From the NCBI GenBank assembly GCA_964574655.1, contig CAZNOH010000002.1, forward strand, positions 29,620 to 93,619: a stretch of DNA of 64,000 nt, written 5' to 3'. The stretch's first letter is position 1. Each line of letters starts with the position of its first letter. Below, piece after piece: positions 2,956 to 61,957 of the stretch. The notes beneath the pieces were generated by a model that searched no databases, had not been told where the DNA came from, and saw only the letters and a program-made list of their open reading frames with translations. The DNA is from an uncultured Candidatus Saccharibacteria bacterium (lineage in GTDB: Bacteria > Patescibacteriota > JABMPQ01 > JAQVVF01). The position numbers and the translations under genes are program-made.

Positions 2956-2980
2956 AAATTAGTTAAAAGTTATAAAATAT

Positions 2981-3085
2981 AATACGAATACGAGTACGAA
3001 TAATGCGAATGATACGAATTGCAAATCGTCGTATTCGTAATTCGCAACATTCGCATTATTCGTATAGCCATTCGTATTATTATAT
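2981..3085. repeat. imperfect palindromic CGAAT/ATTCG-rich element, copy A
   Basis: aatgcgaatgatacgaattgcaaatcgtcgtattcgtaattcgcaacattcgcatt. Its reverse complement recurs at 58436-58518. Confidence 0.6.
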
Positions 3086-4048
3086 TTTTTCTAATAAACT
3101 AATTCTGTCATATTCTTTCCTAATTTGCAACCCCTTAATGTTCTTTAGAGAGCCAGTTTTTGCAGTTCTCAAAACTCTCAAAGCTTCTTCTAAATCTAAG
3201 AAACTGATATCCTTATATTTTGCTAATTTTAATCTCAAAATTGCTCTTTGCAATGACTTTTCTAAGGCTAAAAACTCATTCAATTTTAAAGAATTTTCAT
3301 CTAGACTTAGTTCGCTTAATTTAAGTTTAGCCATCTTCTCAATATAATCACAATCATCCTTTAATGTCTTTGCGCTTTGGCAAATTGTTGATCTAAAATT
3401 TTGATTATAACCTTCTTCTAAATAAGGCACTAATTCATGCCTAATTTTATTTCTCAAATATAATTTTTGTGAATTAGATGCATCAATTCTATGCTCTAAA
3501 TGATTTTCTTTCAAATAAAGCAAAATATTTCTTTTATAACAATCTAATAAAGGCCTAATAATATTATTTTGCTGATATTTAATTCCGCTCAAGCCCTTCA
3601 ATCCTGATCCTCTCAAGAAAAACATCAAAATAGTTTCCGCATCATCATCTCTATTATGCGCAACCGCAATTTTATTAGCCTTTTCTCTAGTCGAAATTTC
3701 ATTAAAATAATTATATCTAATTTCTCGGCATTTTGCTTCCAGTCCCTTATCATCAATCTTCAAATCTTTTACTTCTTTAACATAAATTGGCAAATTATAC
3801 TGCTCCGCAAGTTTACGAGCCAAAATCATATCCAAAAAAGAATCTTTTCCTCTTAAATTATAGTTTACATGCACCAAAATCAAATCAAAACCCAATTCTT
3901 GTTTTAAATTGGCCAAAATGTGAAGAAGGCAGACAGAATCTGGTCCAGCAGACAAGCCTAATACAATTCTGTCGGAAGAGTTGATTAGATTATTATCTTT
4001 AATTGTTTTCAAAACTTGTTCTTGCATAAGTAGCAAGTATTCTAGCAT
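3080..4048 (-). CDS. tilS: tRNA(Ile)-lysidine synthetase
   Basis: PP-loop SAGPDS motif near the N-terminus; about 320 aa. Confidence 0.85.
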   Translation of the reverse strand: MLEYLLLMQEQVLKTIKDNNLINSSDRIVLGLSAGPDSVCLLHILANLKQELGFDLILVHVNYNLRGKDSFLDMILARKLAEQYNLPIYVKEVKDLKIDDKGLEAKCREIRYNYFNEISTREKANKIAVAHNRDDDAETILMFFLRGSGLKGLSGIKYQQNNIIRPLLDCYKRNILLYLKENHLEHRIDASNSQKLYLRNKIRHELVPYLEEGYNQNFRSTICQSAKTLKDDCDYIEKMAKLKLSELSLDENSLKLNEFLALEKSLQRAILRLKLAKYKDISFLDLEEALRVLRTAKTGSLKNIKGLQIRKEYDRISLLEKI

Positions 4049-4082
4049 TAATCCAAAAATTTATCAAGGTTTTACGTTTCAG

Positions 4083-4170
4083 AGCGTTGGAGCTTCGGAC
4101 CGTCAGATCGTCAGAACGTCAGAACTTCCGACGCTCCGACGCTCTGACGCTCCGAAAATCCGACGCTCTA
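4083..4170. repeat. GC-rich tandem octamer array (CCGACGCT)n with a CAGAACGTCAGA leader
   Basis: ccgacgctccgacgctctgacgctccgaaaatccgacgct. The same family occurs at 25695-25788 and 25953-26045. Confidence 0.6.
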
Positions 4171-4253
4171 ATGCCTCCCAAACAAAAATCAGCGCTTCAC
4201 GCTGATCTTTTATAATATCTAATATCCGTAATATCGTAATTTCCAAATTTCCG

Positions 4254-5576: not shown

Positions 5577-5733
5577 ATAGACCAGTATAAACAATAAATC
5601 TTTTTCTGGCAAGAGAATTGCCGCCAAATTGTTAAATTGATAAATTGTTAATCGACCGAACTTAAAAAAAATTAGCCATTTAGCAATTGAACAATTTAGC
5701 AATTAAGCAATAAAAAAACAGGTATAAAACCTG

Positions 5734-6009
5734 TTAAGTCAAAAGTGCGTTTACTTCTTGCTCGCTCATCCAACGATGCAAGGCAAACTTCCGCAAAAAC
5801 CTGTCGAAAATAGCAATGTCAGCTCTTGACAGTCTTTGCCAAAGAGAATCACTGTTTGCAACTTTGACAAGATCAGCGATTGTTCTGATTTGTCGTGTTT
5901 GCAATACGGAAACGGCATCTTCGGAAAGCCCAGAAATTGAAGCCTCTTTCAGAAGAGCTTCTTTTTTATTCGCTCGCAATTCATAACCGATCTGGTCATC
6001 GCTCCACAT
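5734..6009 (-). CDS. hypothetical protein (higher-GC islet with a strong SD)
   Basis: GAGGAGG lies upstream of the ATG, and the stop and start overlap the upstream gene by 14 nt. Confidence 0.45.
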   Translation of the reverse strand: MWSDDQIGYELRANKKEALLKEASISGLSEDAVSVLQTRQIRTIADLVKVANSDSLWQRLSRADIAIFDRFLRKFALHRWMSEQEVNALLT

Positions 6010-12443: not shown

Positions 12444-12505
12444 TAAATAAGACAAAAAATCCAGCCTCATCGCCGGATTATTAAACAATTGAACAATCGA
12501 ACAAT

Positions 12506-12898
12506 TTAACTTTTTTTAGTTTTAATCTTCAAAGCTATTTCATCACTCACTTTCCAGTAATCCGCCAATCTTTTGTATAAATCATTCGCCATCTCTTCAG
12601 AATAAGTATGCACTGACAAATTCCTGTCCGCAGTCATTTTCAAACACACTTCAACATCTTCTTCAGATAAATTCAACAAATTTCTCAATTCGCGAAAACA
12701 AGCTTTTGGCGAAAAACAATCAATTCCTTCAATTTCTTTCAAATAAGTTTTAACAGTTTTCCACAGCAATTCATAGCTAAATTCATATCGTTGAATTGCC
12801 GCGTCTCTGATAACATCCGAAAATTCCATATCCAAAACCTCTTTCCACGCCTTATTTGCTTTTTCTAATTGTTCTAATTTTTCTTTTAAGTAAGCCAT
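12506..12898 (-). CDS. HEPN-domain protein of the HI0074 family (nucleotidyltransferase substrate-binding protein; toxin component)
   Basis: Length and helical profile match the HI0074 family. It overlaps its upstream partner by 13 nt. Confidence 0.7.
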   Translation of the reverse strand: MAYLKEKLEQLEKANKAWKEVLDMEFSDVIRDAAIQRYEFSYELLWKTVKTYLKEIEGIDCFSPKACFRELRNLLNLSEEDVEVCLKMTADRNLSVHTYSEEMANDLYKRLADYWKVSDEIALKIKTKKS

Positions 12899-13170
12899 AT
12901 AATTTTGCTATTTAAATTTTTATCTCTAAATTCTTTTTCTACTTTATTAAAATCAACAACATCGAATTTAAAAGGCAACAAAGATTCTTCTAATTCATCT
13001 TTTAAATTTCTTAATTTATCTTCATCAATCTTGCCATCAACAAATCCAAGATCAATGTCAGAAAATTTATTTTCAGTTACGCTTGAGCCAAAAACAAAAA
13101 ATCTTTCTTTATTTTTTGTATATTTATTAATAATTTCTTTAATTTTTTCTAAGTATTTTTTGTCTATCAT
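12886..13170 (-). CDS. minimal nucleotidyltransferase (MNT, HI0073-like; antitoxin component)
   Basis: FGSSVTENKFSDIDLGF matches the GS...DxD nucleotidyltransferase motif. Confidence 0.7.
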   Translation of the reverse strand: MIDKKYLEKIKEIINKYTKNKERFFVFGSSVTENKFSDIDLGFVDGKIDEDKLRNLKDELEESLLPFKFDVVDFNKVEKEFRDKNLNSKIIWLT

Positions 13171-18653: not shown

Positions 18654-18908
18654 ATTGCTGATTGTGGAAGGAAATAAATAATCAACTTTAATGTTACAAG
18701 ATATTATTAAAGTAAAGATTCTAGATCTTTACTCAATGATCATGACTTCTCCATTCGGTTTATACCTAATAATGAAGAAGTAACAAAAATCTCCAAGCAG
18801 GGGATTTTTTGTTTGGAAAAAATCTGTTAAAATAAAACTAAGTTATAAAGTCCATAAAGTTATAAAGTTTTTAAAGTACTTTACAAACTTTATAACTTTA
18901 CAAACTTT

Positions 18909-19997
18909 ATGAACTACAAGAAGATAATTCCTATTAGCGTAATTATACTGGCGATAGCTTTGTCTTTTGTTTTTATTAAGTTCAAAGCAACAGCGCCTGA
19001 TCCATTAAAAAATTGGACTTTAAAACAAAAAGTTGGTCAATTATTAATGGTTAATTTTAATGGCACTGAACCTGATTACTATGTTAACAAGATGATTCTA
19101 GAAAGAAATGTCGGTGGCGTGATTTTAATGGGAGCAAATATTAAAGACAGCGAGCAAGTCAAAATTTTAACGAATGCCTTGCAATATAATACAACGCAAA
19201 ATGAAAAGCAAATCCCTTTATTTATTTCAGTTGACCAAGAAGGCGGGGAAGTCACAAGGCTAAAAGATGTAGAGAAAACAGCGCAGAAAGCTATTAAGAC
19301 TGAAGACCAAGCACAAAAAATTGCCAAGACTAGGGGAGAGCAACTATTAAATTTAGGGATAAATATTAATTTAGCGCCTGTTCTAGATTTTAGTGATGAC
19401 AAAAAATCATTTATTTATTCTCGGACTTTTGAAACTGATTTAGATAATACAACGAAATTAGGTATCTCAACTGCAAAAGGGTATAATCAAGCAAAAATTA
19501 TTTACGTGCCTAAGCACTTCCCCGGCCATTTTAATTCTGTAATTGATTCTCATCAAGAATTGCCAATGATTTTAGAATCAGAAAAAGAAATGCTTAAAAA
19601 TGTTGAGCCATTTGCAGAAGTAATCAAAGACCAAGATCCAAAGATAATAATGACATCTCATACACTTTATCCCGAGATAGATCCAAAATATCCAGCAACG
19701 TTATCAAAGAAAATATTAAATAATATATTAAGAAAAAAGCTGAAATTTAATGGATTGATTATGACTGATGATTTAAGTATGAAAGCATTAACAACAAAAT
19801 ATCCAATTGAAGAAACAGCAGTAAAAGCCTTACAGGCGGGAAATGATATTCTATTAATTATCAGCGAACCTGAAGAGCAAGTCAAAGTTTTTGATGCAAT
19901 TATAAAAGCAGTCGAAGAGAATAAAATATCAGAAAAAGAAATTGATCAAAAAGTGATTAAAATTCTAGAAACAAAGAATCAGATGTTAGATAAATAG
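18909..19997 (+). CDS. nagZ: beta-N-acetylhexosaminidase, GH3 family, membrane-anchored
   Basis: KVGQLLMVNFNG, DQEGG, KHFPGHF and MTDDLSMKA are GH3 N-terminal domain motifs; N-terminal TM segment. Confidence 0.8.
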   Translation: MNYKKIIPISVIILAIALSFVFIKFKATAPDPLKNWTLKQKVGQLLMVNFNGTEPDYYVNKMILERNVGGVILMGANIKDSEQVKILTNALQYNTTQNEKQIPLFISVDQEGGEVTRLKDVEKTAQKAIKTEDQAQKIAKTRGEQLLNLGININLAPVLDFSDDKKSFIYSRTFETDLDNTTKLGISTAKGYNQAKIIYVPKHFPGHFNSVIDSHQELPMILESEKEMLKNVEPFAEVIKDQDPKIIMTSHTLYPEIDPKYPATLSKKILNNILRKKLKFNGLIMTDDLSMKALTTKYPIEETAVKALQAGNDILLIISEPEEQVKVFDAIIKAVEENKISEKEIDQKVIKILETKNQMLDK

Positions 19998-20816: not shown

Positions 20817-20887
20817 ATCAAAAAAAACAGCGGAAAATTCTGCTGTTTTTTTGTTATTTATAATTTAGTTATTTTTATTATTGGCAA

Positions 20888-22382: not shown

Positions 22383-22670
22383 TCAACATAGTACAAAATT
22401 CGCATAAAAAGAACCAAAATCAGTATCAACAATTCCATTCTTGCCAAATACCATCTCAACGATCGTTTGAATTGCCTGATGAACTGTTCTGCCCGAGCTG
22501 TCCATGATCAACCAGTCATTCCATTCGTCAATTTTTGCACCATCCCTATCCAAAAGCGTTACACCCATCCGTGATCCGCCATCAGAAGCATTCCATGAAA
22601 TCCTGATTTTTCCGATGTTATTCTTCTTTGCCAGAAGACGATCATGAAGCGTTTGCTTGTTGTCAGACAT
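22383..22670 (-). CDS. hypothetical 95-aa protein (islet; SD AGGAGG)
   Basis: Start at MSDNKQ. The longer track ORF 22383..22859 overlaps the zinc-ribbon gene out of frame and is rejected. Confidence 0.45.
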   Translation of the reverse strand: MSDNKQTLHDRLLAKKNNIGKIRISWNASDGGSRMGVTLLDRDGAKIDEWNDWLIMDSSGRTVHQAIQTIVEMVFGKNGIVDTDFGSFYANFVLC

Positions 22671-22893
22671 TTCGAGCCTCCTGATGCGTGCAACTCGAAA
22701 AGCTTGTGCAACGAGTGCAAACAAGCACTCCCTCTCCGGCGATACTTTCACAATCTGGACAGCACGGCTTTTCGCAAACTGAGCAGACATCAAAACTCTT
22801 GTGGTCTTCAGGAGTAACAATATAATCCTTACCACAGCAAGGACAATGAAATGTGCCAACCTGACCAGGAAGAAGAATCTGTGTCGTCTGCAT
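22663..22893 (-). CDS. Cys-rich zinc-ribbon protein (76 aa)
   Basis: CPCCGK, CSVCEKPCCPDC and CTRC motifs; SD GAAGGAGA. Confidence 0.5.
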   Translation of the reverse strand: MQTTQILLPGQVGTFHCPCCGKDYIVTPEDHKSFDVCSVCEKPCCPDCESIAGEGVLVCTRCTSFSSCTHQEARNV

Positions 22894-23102
22894 TTTGTCT
22901 CCTTCTGCTCTTTAAAGAGCGACCCTGATCAAAAACTATCAAAGAAAACTGTATTTGTCAACGCTTTTCAATATTTCCATCCAAAGATGATAACTAGTAC
23001 ATTTTATTATTCTTCAAAAAAACTTGTAAGTAAATGCTTGCCAAAAATAAAAGGTTATGTTAGTCTAATACATTGCACCTTCACAACCAGAGAGGGAGAA
23101 AC

Positions 23103-23789
23103 ATGGCCAGACAACAAGTTTTGGTTGAGGAATTAGTAAGGCAAGAAGAAACACGATTCATTGATCAAATGGGAGATTTGGAAGCACAAAGATCAGCTGA
23201 AAGAAATGCCGTTGAAGAAATCGAAACAGGCATTCCAAGAATGCGTGAAACTGTTACTGACGCTTTTCCTAGTATTGAAGCGAATGAACTCAATCGGCTT
23301 TTGCAAGAAGCCCGAATGACTCTTCGTCGTAAAGCTGGACTTGAAGCGCCTGATCAAAATGAAGCTGAATCACTGGCTAGGGTTGTAGGCAATCGATTTG
23401 TGCATAAATACATGATGCTTTGGGCAATCTTGATTGTCTTGAGCTTCATCGTCAGTATGATTGGAATTAACTATTTGGTTGAAAATGATAAGTCAGTAGC
23501 AACGGAATCGCAGGTTCCTGTTTCAATCGAAGCTATCCACGTAACAGGTACAAATCAAGTGAACATCAATGTCTATTCCAGCACAGACGCAGATGAAGTG
23601 CTTCTTTATCGCAACACCAGCGTAGTTAAGAAATGGCAAAAGGGCGGAAATTTTTTTCCAGTTGTAGAGTATCATGATCGCGGTACTTACGTGTATTTTG
23701 CCGAAGCGTTTCGCGACGGAGTTAAGACCACCAGTCAACAGGTTCAGGTGGTCTTTGGTCAAAACAACAAGGAGGGACAGCAGAGATGA
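23103..23789 (+). CDS. hypothetical single-TM protein (islet)
   Basis: SD GAGGGAG precedes MARQQ; there is a central TM segment. Confidence 0.5.
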   Translation: MARQQVLVEELVRQEETRFIDQMGDLEAQRSAERNAVEEIETGIPRMRETVTDAFPSIEANELNRLLQEARMTLRRKAGLEAPDQNEAESLARVVGNRFVHKYMMLWAILIVLSFIVSMIGINYLVENDKSVATESQVPVSIEAIHVTGTNQVNINVYSSTDADEVLLYRNTSVVKKWQKGGNFFPVVEYHDRGTYVYFAEAFRDGVKTTSQQVQVVFGQNNKEGQQR

Positions 23790-24058
23790 CATTCTTGTGG
23801 GCATTGCTTGTAAGTGCAATCGGAGCAATTAGTTTCAATTTCGGAAAACGTGAAACAAGCTATTGGCTAGGTTATGGAATTAAATTTGCTTGCTATCTGG
23901 CACTCGTCTGGCTAATCCAATATCATGTTCTGACAACCTTCGATGCAATGCGAACAATAACCTGGATTCTTGTATTGATGGGCATTAGCAATGGACTGAT
24001 GTACTCTTTGAAGCAACAGAAGACGGTCCAGTTACTGGCGGAATCATCGGAGCACTAG
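23786..24058 (+). CDS. small membrane protein (islet)
   Basis: Three hydrophobic segments; its stop overlaps the next start. Confidence 0.45.
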   Translation: MTFLWALLVSAIGAISFNFGKRETSYWLGYGIKFACYLALVWLIQYHVLTTFDAMRTITWILVLMGISNGLMYSLKQQKTVQLLAESSEH

Positions 24059-24141
24059 TTTCCGTTGTTCTCCTACTTTGCTTTAGTATCAACAGCTGTG
24101 AGTGTGCTCGTGCTGAAGATCTCTACAAAACAGTTGCAACA

Positions 24142-25641
24142 ATGCAGGTAGATGCTACCAAGTTCAACCAGAATCCAGTTGACGAGAATCATATCAGAGT
24201 TGTGCCAAAAGAAACAGCCATGAGGGTTGCAAAACAAGAGATTTCTTCCAGCGGTCAGAACTACGGCGCATACTATGAATTCCAAAATCAGAGTATGACA
24301 ATCCAGAAGGTTAATGGACGGCTCTATTGGGTCGCTCCAATGGAATTCGCTGGATATTTCAAGTCAGTAAATGCAAAGTTTACGCCAGGATACATCATGA
24401 TTTCAGCTGAAGATGAAACGGAAAAGCCGAAGTTGGTAACAAAGAAAGCTGATGGATCATCGATCAAAATGATCTATCTGATGTCAGCATGGTTCGGTGA
24501 TGAACTTGATCGATTCCTGTATAACAAGCATCCAGATTGGTATCTCGACGACTTCTCCTTTGAAGTCGATGAGGAATTGAATCCATGGCAGGTTGCGACA
24601 GTCCTTGATCGTTTCGCTGGCTACAATTACTACACTGTAAAAGGCGTACTAGTTGTGAGTCCAGAAACTGGTGAAGAAAAATTCTACAAGGTTGAAGATA
24701 TTCCAAGCTGGGTTGATCGAGCCGTTCCGCAAAAATTGGCAATCAATTTTTTCAGATGGTGGGGCACTTACAAGTATGGTTGGATGAACAACGTGAATTC
24801 CAATCCAGATTTGAAGAAACCAACTGAAATTAGTGGCCAGTATGCAGTCGAAATGATTTGGGGATCTGATGATGAACCGTACTGGTTCACAGGATTCACT
24901 TCTATGAACGACAATGATCAAGCTCTTGTTGGCAAAGCTTTTATGGATACAAGGACAGGAAGGTTCTTCTACATTCCAGCAAGTGGAGCCACAGAGGAAA
25001 GAGTTGCAAGTGACATTCACGCAGTACTCGGCAAGCAAACAGTCGATCTGGCTGTAAGTGAACCGATTCCCTACAATATGTATGGACAACCTAACTGCTG
25101 GGTAGCGCAAGTCATTTCGATGCCAAGCGGTGAAGGCCAAGCACAACATAGTGGCGGAGCGCTTGTCAAAATCGCGATTGTCAATGGTGATACAACAGCA
25201 CCACCAGTCTTGGCTGAAAGCAAGCGAGAGGCACTAACACTCTTCAAGCAGTCTCTTGCTAGAAATGGAATCCAGACAACGGTCAGCGATACGAGCGCGC
25301 GGAAAGAACTGAGGGGAAGTATCCAGCGACTCAGCATCATCCCTCAGGAAAATTCAACAAGCATTCGATTCAGTCTCGAAGGCAGTTCTCTGGAGTTTGC
25401 CTGCGATTTGTTGAAATCTGATCAGAGCAAAACGTCACTGACGCTTGCTAAGCCAGGTGATGTTGTAAATATTATCTATTTCGAAACCAAGGAAAGACTC
25501 GTCACTGTCGATGACTTCTCAGTTGAAGGCCAAGTCCCAGTCACCTCTCCAAACCAGGAGAGAATGGACGAGACTGTTCGACAGCAACGTGAACTCGAAC
25601 AAGAGCAGGCTCCCCCAGTTCAACCAGTTCCCGCACAATAA
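24142..25641 (+). CDS. hypothetical 499-aa protein (islet)
   Basis: Long ORF with no recognisable motifs; GC about 44% against an AT-rich host. Confidence 0.55.
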   Translation: MQVDATKFNQNPVDENHIRVVPKETAMRVAKQEISSSGQNYGAYYEFQNQSMTIQKVNGRLYWVAPMEFAGYFKSVNAKFTPGYIMISAEDETEKPKLVTKKADGSSIKMIYLMSAWFGDELDRFLYNKHPDWYLDDFSFEVDEELNPWQVATVLDRFAGYNYYTVKGVLVVSPETGEEKFYKVEDIPSWVDRAVPQKLAINFFRWWGTYKYGWMNNVNSNPDLKKPTEISGQYAVEMIWGSDDEPYWFTGFTSMNDNDQALVGKAFMDTRTGRFFYIPASGATEERVASDIHAVLGKQTVDLAVSEPIPYNMYGQPNCWVAQVISMPSGEGQAQHSGGALVKIAIVNGDTTAPPVLAESKREALTLFKQSLARNGIQTTVSDTSARKELRGSIQRLSIIPQENSTSIRFSLEGSSLEFACDLLKSDQSKTSLTLAKPGDVVNIIYFETKERLVTVDDFSVEGQVPVTSPNQERMDETVRQQRELEQEQAPPVQPVPAQ

Positions 25642-25694
25642 TATAGTTATCCGTACCTTTTTTCAAACCACATTCGTGGTTTTTTTATTTATTG

Positions 25695-25788
25695 GAACTT
25701 CGGAGTTTCGGAACTTCAGATCGTCAGAACGTTCCGACGTTCCGACGTTCCGACGTTCCTAAGCTCCGACAGTCCGAAGCTCTGTTCC
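25695..25788. repeat. tandem octamer array (CCGACGTT)n of the GACGTTCC family
   Basis: cagaacgttccgacgttccgacgttccgacgttcc. Confidence 0.6.
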
Positions 25789-25952
25789 TAACCTGTGCAT
25801 AACTATGGTATAACTTGTGTTTTGGTGTTCGCTAGTTATTGGTATTCTTTTTAATAAATGCTATAATTATGTCGAAAGTGTCGGACACTTTAGACAGATG
25901 CTTGAATAAGGCAAAAAAGCGTGTTATAGCAAAAATGTTCCACGTGGAACAA

Positions 25953-26045
25953 TCGGAGCGTCGGAGAATCAGAACGTCAGATCGTCGGAGCGTAGGACGT
26001 TCCGACGTTCCGACGTTCTGAAGCTCCGAAGATCTGACGCTCCAA
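25953..26045. repeat. tandem octamer array of the GACGTTCC family, second copy in the same orientation
   Basis: tcagaacgtcagatcgtcggagcgtaggacgttccgacgttccgacgttctg. Confidence 0.6.
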
Positions 26046-26862: not shown

Positions 26863-26912
26863 ATTTAGTCTGGCAATATTAGAATGTTCCACGTGGAACA
26901 TTTCGAATCTTT

Positions 26913-26983
26913 CGGGGCATAGTATACCGGTAGTACGCGTCCTTCGGGAGGATGTAGACTGGGTTCGATTCCCAGTGCCCCGA
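26913..26983 (+). tRNA. tRNA-Pro(CGG), copy 1
   Basis: C1-G72 pair, anticodon loop TTCGGGA, T-arm CTGGGTTCGATTCCCAG. Confidence 0.75.
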
Positions 26984-26990
26984 TTCGAAT

Positions 26991-27068
26991 TATAAATAAC
27001 TAAATGAAAAATAACAAAATTGCCGTCGGGTCGATAATTTAGTTATTTTGTTATTTAGTTATTTATAA
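26991..27068. repeat. tRNA-associated hairpin element (arms ATAACTAAAT...AACAAAATT)
   Basis: aaataactaaatgaaaaataacaaaatt-gccgtcgggtcgat-aatttagttattttgttatttagttattt. A homolog occurs at 30409-30493. Confidence 0.6.
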
Positions 27069-27076
27069 TTCACAGT

Positions 27077-27147
27077 GGGCCTATGGTATAGTGGCAGCAC
27101 GTGGCATTCGCATTGCCAAGACGGCGGTCCGATTCCGCCTAAGTACA
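27077..27147 (+). tRNA. tRNA-Ala(CGC)-like, possibly degenerate
   Basis: Anticodon arm TGGCA-TTCGCAT-TGCCA, a G3-U70 pair, T-arm GGCGGTCCGATTCCGCC. The acceptor stem has two mismatches. Confidence 0.45.
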
Positions 27148-29965: not shown

Positions 29966-30335
29966 TAAAAATCGCGAATTTACACAAATTCAGCACAAAT
30001 TTCACAAATAAAAAATGACGTTTTAACACGTCATTTTTTTATGTTTGCTAGAATTGGCTAAGGTTGGAGTGAGATTTAATGAAAAATCTTTTTAAAGATC
30101 ATTCATATAAACCTTAGCCAGTTTTAGGAAACAGTTCAGTATGTATATCTTGTCAATAGTATTAACATAATATAGCAGTATTTTGCCTTGTTTAAGGCAA
30201 ACAACGTTTAGATAATTTTGTAATATTTAAAAATAGAATACTAATCAACAATATGCTTGATTTATTTATAAAATGTATTAGAATAAGGATAACAAGTAGC
30301 TTGGAGCAATAGATCGCAAGCTCGTATCAAATTTT

Positions 30336-30406
30336 CGGGGTGTAGTATACCGGTAGTACGCGTCCTTCGGGAGGATGTAGACTGGGTTCAATTCCCAGCA
30401 CCCCGA
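30336..30406 (+). tRNA. tRNA-Pro(CGG), copy 2
   Basis: Identical to copy 1 except for compensatory acceptor-stem changes (CA/TG to TG/CA) and a G-to-A change in the T-loop. Confidence 0.75.
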
Positions 30407-30408
30407 AA

Positions 30409-30493
30409 TTAATAACTAAATAACTAAATTCAAAATAACAAAATTATCGTTGATAAATTTAGTTATTTAGCATTTTGTTATTTAGTTATTTTT
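30409..30493. repeat. tRNA-associated hairpin element, second copy
   Basis: aataactaaataactaaattcaaaataacaaaatt-atcgttgat-aaatttagttatttagcattttgttatttagttattt. Confidence 0.6.
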
Positions 30494-32469: not shown

Positions 32470-32550
32470 CGCGATGATAATTTAATATCCGAATATCTTA
32501 ATATCGGTAATATCTTTATTCATAAAGATATTCGGATATTAGGATATTAA
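32470..32550. repeat. orphan palindromic hairpin of the AATATCCG family between pilB and pilC
   Basis: aatatccgaatatcttaatatcggtaatatc...gatattcggatattaggatatt. Confidence 0.55.
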
Positions 32551-32564
32551 AATATTAAACTAGC

Positions 32565-33782
32565 ATGCCGAAATTTACTTATCTGGCTCGCGACAATCAA
32601 GGCAATATAAAAAGAGGCGAATTAACCGCGCCTAATGAAAAGTCATTAGCAAAGACATTGAGAAGCAAGGGCTTGCTTTTAACGCACGCTGAAAAAGAAG
32701 AAATCAAAAAGCATTTTTTCAGCAAAGACATGTCAGGCTTTCTAAGCAAAATAACTACAACTGACAAGATTCTTTTTACAAGAAACATGCAAGTAATGAT
32801 TAAAGCTGGTTTGCCAATTTCCAAATCACTAGAAATTCTTGTAAAACAAACCTCAAAAAAAAACTTCAAAAAAATAATTTCAGATATTTCTAGCAATGTT
32901 CAAAAAGGTAAAACATTAGCAGATAGTTTAGCAGTTTATCCAAAAATATTTCCACCCTTATTTGTTAACATGATCAAAGTCGGCGAAGTTGGTGGTGAAT
33001 TAGAAAAAGTCTTAGATCAGCTAGCTACTCAAATGAAAAAAGACAACGATCTTCTGTCTAACATCAAATCAGCAATGATTTATCCAGTCATTATTTTGCT
33101 TTTGATGATTGCAGTCGTGACAGTTATGATAATCTTTGTTTTACCTGAGTTGGCTAATGTTTTTAGAGATGTACAGGCTGATCTTCCTTTGCCTACTAGA
33201 ATACTCATCGGTTTTTCTGATTTTATTAGCAAATATGGAATTTACGTTGGAATCGCAATTATTGCTTTAGGCGTTCTGTTCTACATAATAATAAAAACTA
33301 AAGAAGGCCATAGAAGATTTCACAAAATACTGCTAGTCATCCCAGTTCTTGGCATTAACATTAAAAAAGTTAATCTAGCGCGTTTTGCAAGAACAACTAG
33401 CACTCTGCTTGTTAGTGGCGTTCCAATTGTTACAACATTAAATATTACCGGAGAGGTTTTAGGTAATTCAATATATCGTGAAGCAGTATATTCAGCAGGA
33501 GATGAAGTCAAAAAAGGTTTGCGCCTAGTTGAGGTACTAGAAAAAAACAAAAAATTATTTCCACCTCTTGTTACGCAAATGGTTGCGGTAGGAGAGGAAA
33601 CAGGCAGTTTAGATACTATTTTAAAGGATATTGCCGAATTTTATGAGGCAGATGTAACAAGAACAACTGAAAATTTGGCTTCAGTTATCGAGCCAATACT
33701 CATGATTACGCTAGGAATTGGTGTTGCTATTATGGCAATTGCCATTATTTCTCCAATATATTCGTTAATGGAAAAGATATAA
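32565..33782 (+). CDS. pilC: type IV pilus platform protein PilC (GspF family)
   Basis: Two GspF repeats and three TM segments, with a conserved MIKAGLPISKSLEIL segment. Confidence 0.85.
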   Translation: MPKFTYLARDNQGNIKRGELTAPNEKSLAKTLRSKGLLLTHAEKEEIKKHFFSKDMSGFLSKITTTDKILFTRNMQVMIKAGLPISKSLEILVKQTSKKNFKKIISDISSNVQKGKTLADSLAVYPKIFPPLFVNMIKVGEVGGELEKVLDQLATQMKKDNDLLSNIKSAMIYPVIILLLMIAVVTVMIIFVLPELANVFRDVQADLPLPTRILIGFSDFISKYGIYVGIAIIALGVLFYIIIKTKEGHRRFHKILLVIPVLGINIKKVNLARFARTTSTLLVSGVPIVTTLNITGEVLGNSIYREAVYSAGDEVKKGLRLVEVLEKNKKLFPPLVTQMVAVGEETGSLDTILKDIAEFYEADVTRTTENLASVIEPILMITLGIGVAIMAIAIISPIYSLMEKI

Positions 33783-38349: not shown

Positions 38350-38488
38350 AATAGCTAATAATCAATAATCAATAATCAACGAATATCCAATATCCAATAA
38401 CTGAATAATCAATAAAGTGATCATCGTCGATTTGGTTATTAGAAGATTGGTTATTGATTATTCGTTGATTATTGGTTATTGATTATTC
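38350..38488. repeat. about 140-bp perfect-arm palindrome upstream of pilM
   Basis: aataatcaataatcaataatcaacgaatatcc...ggttattgattattcgttgattattggttattgattatt. Confidence 0.6.
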
Positions 38489-39570: not shown

Positions 39571-40103
39571 GATGATGCCAATCTACAAATCTTATGCCAA
39601 TTTACAAATTGCTAATATGTTAATGTCATGAATAATTTTACGAATTTGGTTTATCCAGAACTTTCGTATAAGATAACGGGTGTTTTATTTGATACTCATA
39701 ATAGTTTAGGAAGATTTTGTAACGAACAACAATATTCAGATTTTCTTGAGGACAATCTGAAGAAAATGAAAATAAAATATGAACGTGAAAAAATATTACC
39801 AAAATCTTTTGAAGAAGAACAAAAGGGACGAAACAGAATTGATTTTTTGATTGAAGACAAAATAATTTTAGAAATCAAAGCAAAAAGAATCGTTTTGAGA
39901 GAAGATTATTATCAAGTTAAAAGATATTTAATTGCCTTTAATAAAAAATTAGGCCTACTCGTAAATTTCAGAGACAAATATATTAGGCCAAAGCGTATTT
40001 TAAACTCCTCAGTAAAAGAGTATGAAAGTGTTAACAATCAGCAAATCGGCATAGCAAATTAGCAATTTGTAAATTGGCATAAAATTAGCGTATTGGCATC
40101 ATT
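39571..40103. mobile_element. cassette flanked by inverted repeats, carrying a GxxExxY gene and inserted between pilM and pilN
   Basis: The left arm at 39571-39619 (gatgatgccaatctacaaatcttatgccaatttacaaattgctaat) is the reverse complement of the right arm at 40050-40103 (attagcaatttgtaaattggcataaaattagcgtattggcatcatt). The left arm starts right after the pilM stop codon. Confidence 0.6.
39628..40062 (+). CDS. GxxExxY family protein (TIGR04256; IVS-associated)
   Basis: YPELSYKITGVLFDTHNSLG N-terminus and the downstream IDFLIEDKIILEIKA...LGLLVNF segment match the family pattern. Confidence 0.8.
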   Translation: MNNFTNLVYPELSYKITGVLFDTHNSLGRFCNEQQYSDFLEDNLKKMKIKYEREKILPKSFEEEQKGRNRIDFLIEDKIILEIKAKRIVLREDYYQVKRYLIAFNKKLGLLVNFRDKYIRPKRILNSSVKEYESVNNQQIGIAN

Positions 40104-50573: not shown

Positions 50574-50936
50574 CTATTTTTTTGTTTTTGCGCAATCTAT
50601 GCACAATTTTGCAGTTGGACTAGCTTCTAATCTTGCCTTGTCCATATCTTTGGCGCATTTTTCACATTTTCCGAATGAGCCTTCTTTTATTCTATCTAAA
50701 GCTTCATTAACATCTTTAAGTTTCAATTCTAAATTGCTCTCAACAGACAAATTGCTATCATAAAGTGATACTTCAGCTGCTTCAGCAGTGTTATCAAAGA
50801 TTGGATCGCCAAAATTACTAAATTTTGCATCAAAAGTTCCTTTTGTTTTAGGATCTTTTGTTGCAACATCGCCTAAACTCTTCACAAGCTGTTGTTTTTC
50901 TTTTTCTAATTTTTCTTTTATATTGTTGTCTTGCAT
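50574..50936 (-). CDS. DksA/TraR-family C4 zinc-finger protein
   Basis: C-terminal CEKCAKDM...CIDCAK. Confidence 0.75.
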   Translation of the reverse strand: MQDNNIKEKLEKEKQQLVKSLGDVATKDPKTKGTFDAKFSNFGDPIFDNTAEAAEVSLYDSNLSVESNLELKLKDVNEALDRIKEGSFGKCEKCAKDMDKARLEASPTAKLCIDCAKTKK

Positions 50937-52013
50937 TTGTATTATATTTAATATCTAATACATTAAGTTTACCACTAAATTAAATAAAAATCCAGTGAAA
51001 TAAAAAAAAACAGGCGCCAGAGGGCGCCCGTTAAAAATATTTAATGGCGCTCTGGCACCCGTTGGAGTCATATCTTACCGCCTTTCTCCTATTTGTGTTT
51101 AGCACATAGGATAAGAGCAGGATTTAGCGATATAACTCATACAAGGTGCACAAGAAGCCTGATAGTTCTTCAATGTGTCTTTTCTCTCACCGTCCTTCTG
51201 GCTTTTGATCTATTTTGGATCTTGGCCTTAATTTTTGTTTTTGATTTTTTGACCCCAATTGATTTGGAGTATAAAGTACAATACGGGTGTATCAGCACCC
51301 TTAACGGACAGAGAGAGCGTGCCTCACGCGAATACTCACTGATTTCACTAATTGCCACTAATGCGATTAGAATTAGTGTTAATTAGTGAAATTAGTGTAG
51401 ATTAATGTGAAGGACGCTCTTTCCGTACGGTCGCAGTAAAATAGATTTTAATTAAGATATCGTTAATCAGCATAAGTTGCCCAAAGCTGACCAAATGGCA
51501 GAGCCATTGAAGATTAGCGCGGGTAAAAGAAGAGGAAATATACAATAGTTCATCTTATAAACATATATTACCACTCAGGATAGCAAAAGAAATGTGTTCT
51601 TTTGGCTCGTCTATGAATCATTTTAGCTTTTTTCTATGTAAATCAAGATTCTCCACTCTGCAACACGTCAAAGAGCAAACTTTTCTTCAATTACAATATA
51701 AACTAGGCAGAAAGCCTAATCTGATTCTGACAAGCTCAAATTTTGAAAAAACGTTTTTTGTTTTTGTTTCTACATATATTATAGCATGAAATAACAATTT
51801 GTTCAAACCTTGTGATAAATAATAATTAGGGCTTTAATAAAGCCAATATGCGAGTTATCAACAGTGAACAATAAAGTTATACACAGGCATGTTAATAACT
51901 ATTAAGCAGTTTTGAACAACATAGTACCAGCTTATCCACAGTCTTTTGAACAATTTAATAACAAAAAAATCCAGATAACTGGATTAAAAAGATCTAATAT
52001 TGAATTTTTAAGA

Positions 52014-55933: not shown

Positions 55934-56088
55934 AAAAAATAGTGATTGAATATTGAAAATTGAATATTAAGATTAAAAAACGTTAAACTAATCTTAACAC
56001 ATAAATATTCAATATTTAATATTCAATATTTATCGTATAAAAAAAGCAGAAATAAATCTGCTAAAACAAAAAGGACAAAAACTATTAT

Positions 56089-56855: not shown

Positions 56856-58418
56856 CTAATATAGTCTTATCAATCCATTGATCGAATTTCCATCTTCAAA
56901 GCCAAGAGTCAGGTCGCCTTTCAATTCAATTCCAAAATTATTCAAAAAATCTAAAGAATTCAAGTACAGCAATCCATTGTTTGCTTTAATCTGTGCGCTA
57001 ATTACAGCATTTTCGTTTTTAAAAGATTTCAAAATTTCTTTCAGCGAATCATTTATACTGGCAAGTATTAATTTATTATCAAACAGGCAATAACTAAAAC
57101 TATCTAAATTTTTCTTTTCATCTTTCAAAACTAAAGTTCTGATTTTAAATTCCTCAAAATCAGCATTAACAAATTTAAATTTAGAAACATCTGGCAACAG
57201 TTCAATTCCTTCTGATCCATCAGCTAATTCAATCTTTTTCTCTCGAGGTTTTAATCTCGCAAAATATTTTATCAATCCATTTTCAATTTCCACCATTTTT
57301 GCTGACAATTTATTTTCATTGCCAACTTCAGAAATTATTGCCCAAGCTGTTTTGTCTTTTTTGCCAGGCAAAATAATGAATTCAAAATTATTATCAAATA
57401 AAGGCATCAAATCTTTTTCAAAGCTCAATCCATAATTATTATTAAGCTGATCCTCAAAGCCATTCAAAAATTGTAAAAAATTAATATTTGAATCAGCTTC
57501 TTTTTTTAAATCTTGATAAGTATTTTGTAAATTATTTCCTGAATAAGCCATAATCGTTTTATTTGGCAAGAATTTAAATGGCTCTTTCAAGGATAATTGC
57601 TTATTTAAATTCAAATCAGAATATATTTTTAATTCAATATTTGAATTATCTTCTTTTGCGGTTAAAAAGAAATAATTATTATCAAAAATAAATTTATCAA
57701 TACTATTTAAAGCATTGAAATTTGGAAGCAAAGCAAACAGATCATTATTCTTTCTAGAAAATGCATACAAAAAAGAATCAGTTAAAACTTTTTTGTTAAC
57801 CTGAGAAAAATATTTATCATATCTCAAACTTTTCGCTTGATCAAAATTTGCGTCAATTACTTTTCTCAAAGCATCATCATTGTCAGAAATGACTAAAACA
57901 TTATTAATTTCCAAATAGCTAAATGCATTTTGATTAGCTAATCTCACATTATTAATCTTAACATCTCGATAATCAAAAAAACTGAGCTTAGAATTATTAA
58001 TTACATTATTTTTGAATAATTCCAAATTAGCATCTTTAAAGATAAAAATATTTGATTTATCTAAACTAGCATAAGCGCTTTCCGTGCCTAAAACAGACTC
58101 CAAATTGTTTGGCAAAATATTTTTCGCTATTTTTGAAGCTAGAATCAAATCATTATATTTTAAATTTTCATTGCTGATTTTTGATTTATCAATATAAACA
58201 TAAAATTGAACGTTATTTGGAACTAGCTTAACTAATGAATCAGAATTTTTTGCTTTAAAATAATCAAAAATAAAAAAACCAGCCAACGTTAAAAGGCCAG
58301 CAATGATTAAAATAGTTGCCAAAACTAAAATTACTCTTGGCCAAATATGGCGTTTTCTACCTTTTATTTCTTGTACTGGTGAAATAAAGATCTGTTCTTT
58401 TTTCTTGATTATATCCAT
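56856..58418 (-). CDS. large N-terminally anchored protein of unknown function, paralog 1
   Basis: One N-terminal TM segment; the start at MDIIKKK is preferred because the longer ORF reads through repeat element B. Confidence 0.55.
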   Translation of the reverse strand: MDIIKKKEQIFISPVQEIKGRKRHIWPRVILVLATILIIAGLLTLAGFFIFDYFKAKNSDSLVKLVPNNVQFYVYIDKSKISNENLKYNDLILASKIAKNILPNNLESVLGTESAYASLDKSNIFIFKDANLELFKNNVINNSKLSFFDYRDVKINNVRLANQNAFSYLEINNVLVISDNDDALRKVIDANFDQAKSLRYDKYFSQVNKKVLTDSFLYAFSRKNNDLFALLPNFNALNSIDKFIFDNNYFFLTAKEDNSNIELKIYSDLNLNKQLSLKEPFKFLPNKTIMAYSGNNLQNTYQDLKKEADSNINFLQFLNGFEDQLNNNYGLSFEKDLMPLFDNNFEFIILPGKKDKTAWAIISEVGNENKLSAKMVEIENGLIKYFARLKPREKKIELADGSEGIELLPDVSKFKFVNADFEEFKIRTLVLKDEKKNLDSFSYCLFDNKLILASINDSLKEILKSFKNENAVISAQIKANNGLLYLNSLDFLNNFGIELKGDLTLGFEDGNSINGLIRLY

Positions 58419-58435
58419 TAGATTATGTGAAAATA

Positions 58436-58518
58436 TAATACGAATAAACGTACAAATAATGCGAATGTTGCGAATTACGAATACGACGATTTGCAATTCG
58501 TATCATTCGTATTATTAT
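58436..58518. repeat. CGAAT/ATTCG palindromic element, copy B (reverse complement of 2981-3085)
   Basis: aataatgcgaatgttgcgaattacgaatacgacgatttgcaattcgtatcattcg. Confidence 0.6.
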
Positions 58519-60134
58519 TTCACAATTATCTCAGCATCAATAAAATTACCAGACCACTTTCTATTCTTTGTTATCCTAATCGCGCTTAAAGATTTTGCCA
58601 GACTATCCACGCTCGCATTATCGTCGCCGCCAAAATTAGAAGATAATTTTAATATAGAATCAATTGAAATATAGATTAGCTGTTCAGATTTGTTTTTTTC
58701 AAATTCCTTAAAATCAGTAACGCTATTTAATTTATCACCAGATTGTAAATTTTCCAATATCTTTTCACTGCTGAATATTACCAATTTATCATCTTTCACA
58801 AAATATCCAAGATCAAATGTTTTTTTTGGCAAATTTATTACTTTATAAGTGGTATTCTTGTTTTTTCTAGCAACAAAACTGACTTCTTTATCATTATTCA
58901 AATATTTTCCAATTAATTTTGCAACAGATCCTTCAATGCTATTCATTTTTTCTTGCGCATTATTTTTATCTTTTAAATCAAGCATCAAAGCTAGTCTGAT
59001 TTTTTCATTTGTAAAATCAGGCGCTAAATAAAATCCATATTGGGAGCTAAACAAATCTAATATTTCATTCAAATCAATCCCATATTCTAATTTTGCGCCA
59101 CGAGAGATTAAAGCAAATTCTGCGCTTGGATCAGGTGAATTGCCAGCAACCAAGCTTGTGAGTATTGGCTTCAAGCTTGATCCTTCCATATAGAAAGCAG
59201 CATCTGAAGCAACAAAGTCAGCAAATTTTGGTTTTATCTTTTTATTATCGCTGATCTTGAAAAGTTCGGGCATGTAGATTTTTGCCAAAATCTTGTCATC
59301 AGTTGCTGAAAATCTTACTCCAGCATAATATTTTCCGCCAATTTCTTTTAATTTTCCTAGCACATCATCGTCTAATTTCAAATTAGACTTCATGAAGACC
59401 TTCAACAGCTCCAAAACATCGCCATAAACAAAGACAACGCCGTCTTGATGATTCAATTTATTTTTTGATTTTATATATTTTCTATCAAAAGCCAAAGCTT
59501 TATTGTTACCTAATTTTGTATCAATCATTTTCTTTAAACCATCAGGAAATTCTGAAATCAGTAAATAATTATCATAAATTGCATAAGAAAGGCTTTTTTT
59601 TCTCGTAATGTTTACTATTTGCTTGCCTCTAAAGTCTTCCTTATCAACAACATAGCCCTTTTTTTCTATGCTATCAGTAAAAACATTCAAAAAGTTGTTT
59701 AACAAGTCTTGATTCTTAATCTCAACTAGAAAAATCTTTGAAAAGCGGTCATTTGTCACCCTAATATTACCAATTGCAATTTTTTGTCCTAACCAGCTAT
59801 AAAAAGTATCTTCATCAATTTTTAAATCATCTGGAGTTATTCCAGCAAGCACCAAACTTCGCAAATAATCACTAAATGCTTTATCATTACCCATTCTTTT
59901 GGCGATTTCTGTTAATTTCATGTTTTGCTTTGAGTCTTTGTTGATATCAACGATTGCAAAAGAGATCAAATCATTCGGGACAAAAGATTCAATGCTTTTC
60001 TTGGCAATATTCAAAGAATACATTGAAAAAATAATTCCCAAGCCAAAAACAAGCACCAGAAATATTGCAATTGTGATGATTAGCTTTTTATTACGTTTTT
60101 GTTTTTTTAAATTCTCTTTTCGTTTTTGAGACAT
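58515..60134 (-). CDS. large N-terminally anchored protein of unknown function, paralog 2
   Basis: Same architecture as 56856..58418, in tandem on the same strand. Confidence 0.55.
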   Translation of the reverse strand: MSQKRKENLKKQKRNKKLIITIAIFLVLVFGLGIIFSMYSLNIAKKSIESFVPNDLISFAIVDINKDSKQNMKLTEIAKRMGNDKAFSDYLRSLVLAGITPDDLKIDEDTFYSWLGQKIAIGNIRVTNDRFSKIFLVEIKNQDLLNNFLNVFTDSIEKKGYVVDKEDFRGKQIVNITRKKSLSYAIYDNYLLISEFPDGLKKMIDTKLGNNKALAFDRKYIKSKNKLNHQDGVVFVYGDVLELLKVFMKSNLKLDDDVLGKLKEIGGKYYAGVRFSATDDKILAKIYMPELFKISDNKKIKPKFADFVASDAAFYMEGSSLKPILTSLVAGNSPDPSAEFALISRGAKLEYGIDLNEILDLFSSQYGFYLAPDFTNEKIRLALMLDLKDKNNAQEKMNSIEGSVAKLIGKYLNNDKEVSFVARKNKNTTYKVINLPKKTFDLGYFVKDDKLVIFSSEKILENLQSGDKLNSVTDFKEFEKNKSEQLIYISIDSILKLSSNFGGDDNASVDSLAKSLSAIRITKNRKWSGNFIDAEIIVK

Positions 60135-60139
60135 GGATA

Positions 60140-60275
60140 AAATATCTAATTTCTAATTCATAATTTCTATTGAATGTCTAATATCCCAATTTCTAATTCT
60201 AGCTATCGGCAAATAGCTTTAGAAATTAGTAATTCAATAGAAATTAGAAATTTAAAATTAGATATTCTAATTATA
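60140..60275. repeat. about 130-bp imperfect palindrome (AATTTCTAATT repeats) upstream of paralog 2
   Basis: ctaatttctaattcataatttctattgaat...attcaatagaaattagaaatttaaaattag. Confidence 0.5.
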
Positions 60276-61396: not shown

Positions 61397-61759
61397 ATGT
61401 TAAGCAAAAAGAAAAAGACTTCATTAATGAAGAAGTATGCAACTCACAAAGGTGACACTGGTTCACCAGAGGTTCAAATCGCTATTTTAAGCGCAGAAAT
61501 TGAAGAATTGGCAGAACATTTAAAGACTCACCGCAAAGACAATTCTTCAAGACGAGGTTTGCTTGGAAAAGTTCATCAAAGAAGAAAATTAATGACTTAT
61601 CTTTCCAAGGAAAATGAAGAAGCATACGCCAGCATAGTCAAAAAGCTAAAGCTTAAAAAAATAAAGAAAGAAACTGAAGTTGAAAAGAAAAGAGCAGAAG
61701 GAATCAGAAAAATTGGACAAGATCCAGAACAAGAAGAAACAGAAGAAGGCATGGAATAA
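61397..61759 (+). CDS. rpsO: 30S ribosomal protein S15 with a K/E-rich C-terminal extension
   Basis: GDTGSPEVQIAILSAEI...HRKDNSSRRGLLGKVHQRRKLMTYL. Confidence 0.85.
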   Translation: MLSKKKKTSLMKKYATHKGDTGSPEVQIAILSAEIEELAEHLKTHRKDNSSRRGLLGKVHQRRKLMTYLSKENEEAYASIVKKLKLKKIKKETEVEKKRAEGIRKIGQDPEQEETEEGME

Positions 61760-61957
61760 AGCAATAAAAGTTTCCGCGTCTTTTGCGTACGATTCTGCGT
61801 TATTCTGCGCAGAAACACGCTGAATTTAACGCAGAAGACGCAGAATTTATATAACAGAATTTATATTAATTAATTACGGAATTCTCTCTCAACTTGATCT
61901 CCAAATAATCAGACATACGTCTGCAATTTGTAGGTCAATAGAGAAGAATCAAAACAA

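Follow-up and report, generated by a model that had tools for sequence, protein, structure and literature searches.

The two copies of a CGAAT-rich element in a 64,000-nt stretch of DNA from an uncultured Candidatus Saccharibacteria bacterium (assembly GCA_964574655.1, contig CAZNOH010000002.1, positions 29,620 to 93,619; hereafter the window) are paralogous copies of one quasi-palindromic spacer. Copy A lies between tilS and ftsH and copy B between two DUF3352 genes, and the pair is one sequence family within a window-wide, lineage-wide class of intergenic hairpins. The identity of the two copies and their membership of this class, taken alone, are held with considerable confidence. The full reading preferred here adds that the hairpin is grown by slippage, templated as a palindrome and copied between gaps, and that its RNA stem would serve in processing, stability or coupling; as a whole we regard this statement as evenly poised between right and wrong.

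A 55-mer quoted in the preliminary description of this DNA has a single match on the + strand of the window, at 58455, and a single reverse-complement match, at 3006. The core of A (3006-3060) and the core of B (58455-58509) form an exact inverted match of 55 nt, which confirms the description of two related reverse-complement copies. In a repeat search of the window the inverted match grows to 82 nt at 91% complementarity (2999-3080 against 58435-58516), and when a 30-mer from the core was searched with up to 3 mismatches, A and B were the sole matches in the window (0.00 expected, 100 shuffles). In the inverted alignment B equals A minus 21 nt (ACGAGTACGAATAATGCGAAT, 2990-3010), by which the partner of one outer arm is removed; ACGAAT direct repeats at both borders of this segment in A point to a slippage-type deletion in B. 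The opposite orientation of the copies holds for the core, with 61/62 identity in the inverted alignment, but the outer left arm of B fits the left arm of A at least as well in direct orientation (33/38, ungapped), and the right end of B (CATTCGTATTATTAT) is the same as A 3067-3081. Either the whole element is inverted or, possibly, just the central ~36 nt have been flipped. A 21-mer from the core had 0 exact matches in genome, metagenome or viral contig collections, and within the collections searched the sequence is limited to its two copies here. A loose 9-periodic CGAAT pattern gave more than 120 matches in viral contigs, all of them unrelated and uninformative, and the pattern ACGAATNNNRCGAAT was not found in the first 23 loci.

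Both copies are imperfect palindromes, as had been claimed, and both fold. Copy A is a full hairpin spanning the tilS-ftsH gap (2965-3090) with 48 pairs and a loop of ~6 nt, and its arms (2979-3026 and 3033-3080) were 81% self-complementary in the repeat search. Copy B is a shortened hairpin across the DUF3352-DUF3352 gap (58431-58524), with an inner 26-bp stem (58455-58516) enclosed by an outer TGTGAAA/TTTCACA stem. The sequences at 2981-3085 and 58436-58518, the extents first given for the copies, are as described, but the full structures are slightly larger. As RNA, copy A has a folding energy of −50.5 kcal/mol (z-score, z = −9.5) on the sense (−) strand and −45.9 kcal/mol (z = −8.1) on the antisense strand, and copy B has −27.6 kcal/mol (z = −4.1) and −33.5 kcal/mol (z = −5.4), respectively. 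Within the left arm of A, CGAAT motifs are spaced by 12, 9 and 9 nt, and within the right arm ATTCG motifs are spaced by 7, 9, 9 and 12 nt. The arms of A and B are tandem arrays of ~9-nt xxxxCGAAT units, with the opposite arm being the mirrored complement.

The two elements stretch from stop to start, with the upstream TAA in the 5' base of the hairpin and the downstream ATG 10-12 nt beyond its 3' base. Upstream of A is tilS (3080-4048, − strand), encoding a PF01171 TilS-type tRNA(Ile)-lysidine synthetase, with its TAA stop (3080-3082) at the 5' base; downstream is ftsH (1099-2955, − strand), with its ATG ~10 nt past the 3' base. Copy B is preceded by one DUF3352 gene (58515-60134, − strand), the TAA stop of which lies within the hairpin base, and followed by the other (56856-58418, − strand), which starts at an ATG 12 nt past the hairpin. 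These gene calls agree with the earlier placement of the copies in short gaps between same-strand genes (ftsH/tilS and a pair of tandem paralogs). The two DUF3352 proteins are only 25% identical, and so are old paralogs. The last ~10 nt before the ftsH ATG (AACTAATTT) are kept in relatives and are the sole conserved part of the tilS-ftsH gap. The gaps of A and B are without a separate terminator, promoter-like sites in them are not above background (9/12 consensus matches at best), and inspection of the initiation regions by eye revealed no obvious Shine-Dalgarno motif.

About 20 intergenic hairpins of the same architecture, that is, mirrored 7-9-nt tandem repeats with differing unit sequence, are present in the window, which has a GC content of 34%. 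Tandem Repeats Finder (TRF) reported 7-9-nt arrays in most gaps, and the autocorrelation of intergenic DNA peaks at lags 7-8, while coding DNA shows only 3-periodicity. Coding and non-coding DNA were separated by both-strand fold energy, not by the number of pairs, and the hairpins that RNAfold found stable on both strands all lie outside genes. Folds with z ≤ −4 occurred in 22/53 gaps against 0/53 length-matched coding segments, and were distributed over 19/40 co-directional, 2/5 convergent and 1/8 divergent gaps. A gapless palindrome scan recovered 11 hairpins only, since hairpins containing indels are missed by it. Rfam at the gathering threshold returned tRNAs only, with no match at any hairpin, and there is no rRNA in the window. 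Counted by sites in the window, the families are CGAAT (two), a GC-rich octamer (three), AATATCCG (three to four) and TAACTAAAT (two to three). The hairpins end 3-30 nt upstream of start codons.

Homologues of FtsH, TilS, DUF3352 and PilM assign the window to the Patescibacteria. Loci of related genomes are designated here by L numbers, the close relatives being L001/L041 (GCA_028699085.1), L037-L040/L049 (JGI Ga0265425/Ga0265451) and L024/L043/L045/L050 (Ga0376277_0000067), and the more distant ones L010 and L020. The tilS-ftsH gap carries a hairpin in 5/5 related genomes examined, with sequences that cannot be aligned to A. The unit types among relatives are TTACAACT, TAATAGC (L037), TAGTAAC (L024/L045, z −7.5) and AGGTTAT (L010, z −4.9); the hairpin of L020 has a z of −4.2, and that of L001 is short (z −1.7). 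Of the relatives, L043 has a strong TAGTAAC hairpin in its DUF3352 gap, and L039/L041 have a weak, AT-rich one. A lack of conservation in relatives is thus true of the sequence, but hairpin position and structure are conserved, and for the tilS-ftsH gap this positional conservation is suggestive. Turnover of sequence is rapid, with multi-copy families particular to each genome, CGAAT being the A/B family of this one. At least four gaps of Ga0376277_0000067 carry a TAGTAAC-family hairpin (after gyrA, tilS-ftsH, DUF3352-DUF3352 and pilM-pilN). A specific coupling of the tilS-ftsH and DUF3352 gaps, in which one family is common to both in the window and in Ga0376277, is unproven and was rejected because TAGTAAC is also found in at least two other gaps of the Ga0376277 contig, and the sharing may be coincidence. 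The GC-octamer hairpin upstream of tilS is in the same place in L024/L045, where it is followed by the same AAAACCTTGAT block, and a TTCTGCGT-octamer hairpin is common to the window (61776-61841) and L043 (2475-2563), where it stands between the S15 and PNPase genes. From the synteny with L043, we infer that the flanking window genes (61397-61759, and the one starting at 61958) are rpsO/S15 and pnp.

The preferred reading would account for these features as follows. Replication slippage would expand and contract the 7-9-nt units, the 21-nt loss in B between ACGAAT repeats being one such event, and intrastrand (quasi-palindrome) templating would preserve DNA-level complementarity between the arms. 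From time to time a hairpin would be copied to, or overwrite, the hairpin of another gap, giving rise to the multi-copy families of that genome. A polycistronic transcript running through A or B would contain a double-stranded stem of 26-48 bp reaching from stop to start, which would most probably serve as intercistronic punctuation, through RNase III-type processing and/or as a stabilising stem-loop, and would bring the upstream stop and the downstream start together for translational coupling. As the contexts of A and B are equivalent but their orientations opposite, what matters can only be the stem and not a strand-specific sequence. In Escherichia coli the S15-PNPase spacer holds the RNase III-cut pnp leader, and the hairpin of the corresponding gap, together with genes at hairpin apices (see below), was counted as an RNase III analogy for the stems. 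By itself the RNA-level function is offered tentatively, as somewhat short of an even proposition.

Several observations weigh against it. Structured gaps are frequent in relatives (about 35-50% of gaps), so that recurrence of the tilS-ftsH hairpin is only modestly beyond chance, by an estimate of roughly 0.03-0.06. Of 31 hairpins for which the direction of transcription was defined, 18 were more stable on the sense strand, 10 on the antisense strand, and 3 equally so on both; G.U pairs numbered 71 versus 54, and the strand asymmetry is not significant. With no G.U strand preference the arms look like DNA-level complements rather than RNA structure under selection, and their DNA-level complementarity fits slippage with intrastrand templating and is no proof of RNA function. 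Copy B is degraded by its 21-nt loss and folds less stably on the sense than on the antisense strand. The hairpin at 4081-4169 has a terminator on one side and the next gene's promoter-like block on the other, and so may not be transcribed; L001, the closest relative, lacks this hairpin but retains the S1 terminator. Every functional step of the hairpin's role is, finally, one that we infer.

Two hairpins in the window are split by a gene at the apex. The first (588-1093) surrounds a gene for a PF05635 '23S rRNA intervening sequence protein' (656-1024, − strand) downstream of ftsH, with AATATCCG-type arrays on both sides; the inverted arrays are at 588-623 (ATATTACGG) and 1041-1093 (AATATCCGT). 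The gene is present in L001 and missing at the same site in L037 and L045, where there is a plain hairpin. The second (39572-40102) has 51-nt arms (39572-39622 and 40052-40102, 86% complementary) around a gene assigned by Pfam to PDDEXK_3 (PF13366; 39628-40062, + strand), which lies between pilM and pilN. With the open reading frame (ORF) taken out and the flanks joined, this hairpin reaches −57 kcal/mol, and at the pilM-pilN site of relatives with 84-85% identical PilM there is just a hairpin of 75-80 nt.

These guest genes bring in the main rival, which is not exclusive of the preferred reading: a selfish, non-autonomous mobile hairpin without host function, either resembling a MITE (miniature inverted-repeat transposable element) or a REPIN (an inverted doublet of repetitive extragenic palindromic sequences), or being the stem-only derivative of an intervening-sequence-like element of which the PF05635/PDDEXK_3 versions are the full form. 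It would copy itself into gaps, preferentially into existing hairpins, and be tolerated there. This explanation is somewhat unlikely. In its favour, two unlinked gaps are joined by 55 nt of perfect identity that includes the non-repetitive loop, each genome has multi-copy families of its own, and hairpins are present, absent or replaced between genomes with 75-87% identical proteins. The guest genes sit exactly at apices and are missing at the same sites in relatives, the ORF-less hairpin at 32474-32566 uses the AATATCCG unit family of the PF05635 gene arms, and pairing is without strand bias. Published intervening sequences are held to be selfish and horizontally spread (PMC4990558), and short ORF-less insertions occur at intervening-sequence sites in the rRNA of the candidate phyla radiation (CPR) (PMC11270868). 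On the other hand, a Pfam scan of the ~62 window proteins found no transposase, REP-associated tyrosine transposase (RAYT), IS200-type or Y1 protein, there is no target-site duplication at the flanks of A or B (the TGTGAAA/TTTCACA flanks of B are inverted, not direct), and no terminal motif is common to the families. The CGAAT family has just two copies in 64 kb, with the core 21-mer lacking an exact match in the collections searched, and local slippage is a better explanation than transposition for the internal tandem periodicity. Between the window and L001 the position of the PF05635 gene is syntenic, so that this gene is not recently mobile. A MITE proper, which would have terminal inverted repeats, a target-site duplication and a related autonomous transposon, is not supported, with no target-site duplication at A/B and no transposase among the window proteins.

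A broader version of the same idea, which we consider improbable, combines mobility with host use. Intervening-sequence-like elements would exist beyond rRNA, as a hairpin-borne element that colonises any transcribed spacer of this Patescibacteria lineage: those separating protein genes or tRNAs, and the interior of a long conserved non-coding region. The forms with a PF05635 four-helix-bundle gene or a PDDEXK_3 nuclease gene at the apex would be complete. The many ORF-less hairpins, A and B among them, would be landing pads or derivatives reduced to the stem, which a hairpin-directed mechanism without a classical transposase would copy from gap to gap and which the host would use as RNase III punctuation of polycistronic RNAs.

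The terminator, protein-array and inversion-substrate readings are less likely. A bidirectional intrinsic (Rho-independent) terminator or attenuator between the genes of each pair is quite doubtful: U-rich tracts follow A on both strands (ATTTTATAACTTTT in the sense and ATTTTTTCT in the other), the hairpin starts at the stop codon, and hairpins are commoner in co-directional and convergent gaps than in divergent ones, but a consensus scan does not call A or B and most sister hairpins lack a T-run after the stem. Moreover, ordinary terminators with 6-14-bp GC-containing stems and a T-run do exist in the window (20822-20852, 4188-4206, 5717-5735 and 56045-56062), three gaps are ordered as stop, canonical terminator, long hairpin and next start, and no strong promoter-like site was seen between A or B and the next start codon.

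A role for the element at the DNA level, whether as an array of protein-binding sites or as a cruciform (in nucleoid organisation, supercoiling insulation or as an UP-like promoter element), is very unlikely. The complementarity of the arms at the DNA level without strand bias would agree with it, as would the ending of hairpins 3-30 nt upstream of start codons and the position of one sister hairpin, which is outside obvious transcription units and has a conserved −35-like TTGATA 13 nt downstream of it. However, the unit sequences are wholly different between hairpins, from AT-rich to 58% GC, so that there is no common recognition motif; hairpins are rare in divergent, promoter-only gaps (1/8), and a period of 7-9 nt does not match the DNA helical repeat.

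Least probable of all, to the point of being hardly credible, is that A and B serve as a homologous-recombination substrate inverting the 55-kb segment between them, an idea of the preliminary description that found no support: the 55 nt of perfect inverted identity (82 nt at 91%) would in principle be enough, given the minimal homology lengths for RecA-type recombination, but tilS-ftsH adjacency is kept in 5/5 related genomes examined (including L010 and L020), the order S1-tilS-ftsH in L001, L037/L038 and L045 (with an extra small gene between S1 and tilS in L037 and L045), DUF3352-DUF3352 adjacency in L039/L040, L041/L042 and L043, and the succession of DUF3352 pair and helicase in L039, L041 and L043, so that the present arrangement is ancestral at both junctions, which argues against a fixed inversion, though an inversion isomer at low frequency may exist; GC skew just tracks gene strand without an inversion signature, Logan unitigs (SRR13723393/4) end at the repeat core and are uninformative on the junctions, and it may be that just the central ~36 nt are in different orientations.

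The remaining sister hairpins were defined by repeat search and RNAfold. GC-rich octamers make up the hairpin at 4081-4169 (CGTCAGAA/TCCGACGC), which lies between the S1-gene terminator (4188-4206) and the promoter-like tilS block, and the two at 25692-25777 and 25953-26037. Near the former, the block AAAACCTTGATAA...TGCTAGAAT upstream of tilS (4039-4067) is conserved in L001, L024 and L045, and reads as a promoter-like −35 / extended −10 sequence (TTGATA-17-TGnTAGAAT). If it is a promoter, the first ATG of the ORF would lie upstream of the true tilS start; the TilS protein P0001 has 315 aa, versus 322 aa for the ORF as called. Near the latter, the segment 22000-26000 has a GC content of 0.42, against 0.33-0.35 elsewhere, and contains five ORFs (22383-25641) without a Pfam match; it may be an acquired island with the GC-octamer hairpins (25692-26037) on its border.

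The hairpin at 32474-32566, in AATATCCG units of the same family as the arms around the PF05635 gene, fills the gap between T2SSE (pilB-like) and T2SSF (pilC-like) genes from stop to start and has no ORF. Upstream of pilM, the hairpin at 38361-38483 is built of AATAATC/AATATCC heptamers, with 48 pairs and −50 kcal/mol, and the TTCTGCGT-octamer hairpin at 61776-61841 lies between genes 61397-61759 and 61958 onwards. Further hairpins are at 5623-5708, 18841-18915, 30042-30133, 55945-56030, 60138-60269 and 61881-61949, and two are found between tRNAs (26974-27082 and 30411-30490). The tRNA-Pro(CGG) gene is duplicated with 93% identity (26910-27082 and 30333-30490), and behind each copy a hairpin of TAACTAAAT units fills the spacer up to the following tRNA (Ala or Gly), which looks like a segmental duplication that included the hairpin.

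A last pair of hairpins (51046-51159 and 51305-51429) was detected upstream of a dksA/traR-like gene (50574-50936). Here, an ORF-free stretch of ~1.08 kb (50937-52013, − strand) has DNA that is conserved in L039/L041/L042, with identities of 81% over ~570 nt and 91% over ~320 nt. Mismatches in it are not 3-periodic, indels are of 1-2 nt, stops are present in all frames and there is no Rfam match; the stretch probably encodes a large, as yet undescribed, non-coding RNA. The tandem-repeat hairpin 51305-51429, which is specific to the window, lies in the sole segment of the stretch that does not align. Elsewhere, overlapping small genes at 12506-13170 encode NTase_sub_bind (HEPN-like) and Polbeta nucleotidyltransferase proteins, an MNT/HEPN-type toxin-antitoxin pair, and are adjoined by ATTGAACA-unit repeats at 12480-12510.

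By itself, the A/B pair is a modest observation. The genomes of CPR bacteria (Patescibacteria) are tiny, which makes the spacers they retain informative, and here a large share of the gaps is filled by long hairpins with DNA-level complementarity, the position of which tends to persist while the sequence is replaced between close relatives, and which within one genome form spreading families. If they are signals for RNA processing or coupling, they would show how these bacteria punctuate and balance polycistronic transcripts; if they are selfish, they would represent a class of transposase-less hairpin element tied to PF05635 and PDDEXK_3, the enigmatic 'intervening sequence' genes. The hairpins also have a practical consequence, in that they break short-read assemblies at their centres, and scaffolding can be led astray by inverted copies of the A/B type. 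Logan unitigs L036, L047 and L048 (SRR13723393/SRR13723394; 1.1-2.9 kb), which are identical to the window, end at the centres of 4081-4169 and A, as palindromes fragment de Bruijn assemblies. In the CPR/Patescibacteria/Parcubacteria literature searched, neither this class of hairpins nor its connection with apex PF05635/PDDEXK_3 genes was found described.

Among known systems, the RNase III sites of the phage T7 early region and of E. coli rpsO-pnp are long imperfect hairpins in polycistronic spacers, where cleavage separates the cistrons and sets their stability. The window and L043 have a conserved hairpin in the S15-PNPase spacer (the window genes being assigned by synteny), but the T7 and E. 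coli sites are conserved unique sequences, while the window hairpins are tandem-repeat palindromes. Repetitive extragenic palindromic (REP) sequences, bacterial interspersed mosaic elements (BIMEs) and REPINs resemble A and B in being extragenic, palindromic, hairpin-forming and often between co-oriented genes, and REPINs are inverted doublets that fold as hairpins in single-stranded DNA or mRNA (PMC3116915; PMC3733652). REPs, however, are 20-40 nt long and RAYT-linked, with near-identical copies numbering in the tens to hundreds, whereas A and B are single hairpins of ~100 nt with ~9-nt internal periodicity, present in two copies in 64 kb and with no RAYT among the ~62 window proteins. The REP/BIME-type label given to them is not supported on these grounds; of the REP/BIME-like behaviour proposed with it, a role as an mRNA hairpin is plausible, but membership of the family is not upheld.

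The intervening sequences of 23S rRNA are excised by RNase III and have a stem of terminal inverted repeats (28 bp in Coxiella) with an optional PF05635 ORF in the loop (PMC4990558), and PF05635 ORFs, as well as short insertions without an ORF, are known from such sites in CPR rRNA genes (PMC11270868). An extended stem from terminal inverted repeats is also seen in A (48 pairs) and B (inner stem of 26), and the split hairpins of the window likewise have PF05635 or PDDEXK_3 genes in their loops, but A and B lie between protein genes and not at an rRNA helix apex, and have a loop of ~6 nt without an ORF. TAACTGA heptamer repeats are found upstream of start codons in Beggiatoaceae, Cyanobacteria and Bacteroidetes, in regions with few canonical ribosome-binding sites, and they have been proposed to act in translation (PMC4679880). 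They are, like the window hairpins, intergenic short tandem repeats a few nt upstream of start codons, but form direct arrays of one heptamer (with one inverted case reported), while those of the window are mirrored into hairpins and their unit varies by site.

The closest published analogue of A and B is the cyanobacterial STRR (short tandemly repeated repetitive) hairpin between hupS and hupL, in which 7-bp repeats form the hairpin and transcript stability or translational coupling has been proposed, the function being unproven (PMC2670836). In both cases tandem arrays of a short unit (7 bp there and 7-9 here) lie in non-coding DNA and form a hairpin between cistrons. STRR are, in addition, reportedly found inside the gene for RNase P RNA, to go by the title of a 1997 article by Vioque (cited in PMC2858038), and the hairpin 51305-51429 in its conserved non-coding block was likened to this. 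The window hairpins differ from STRR in occurring in Patescibacteria and not in heterocystous cyanobacteria, in having many unit sequences per genome instead of a few named heptamers, and in that the mirrored arrays often run from stop to start, with two members carrying a gene in the loop. By this comparison, A and B would be of the tandem-repeat-hairpin kind that is already known, here in a different phylum and with extra features.

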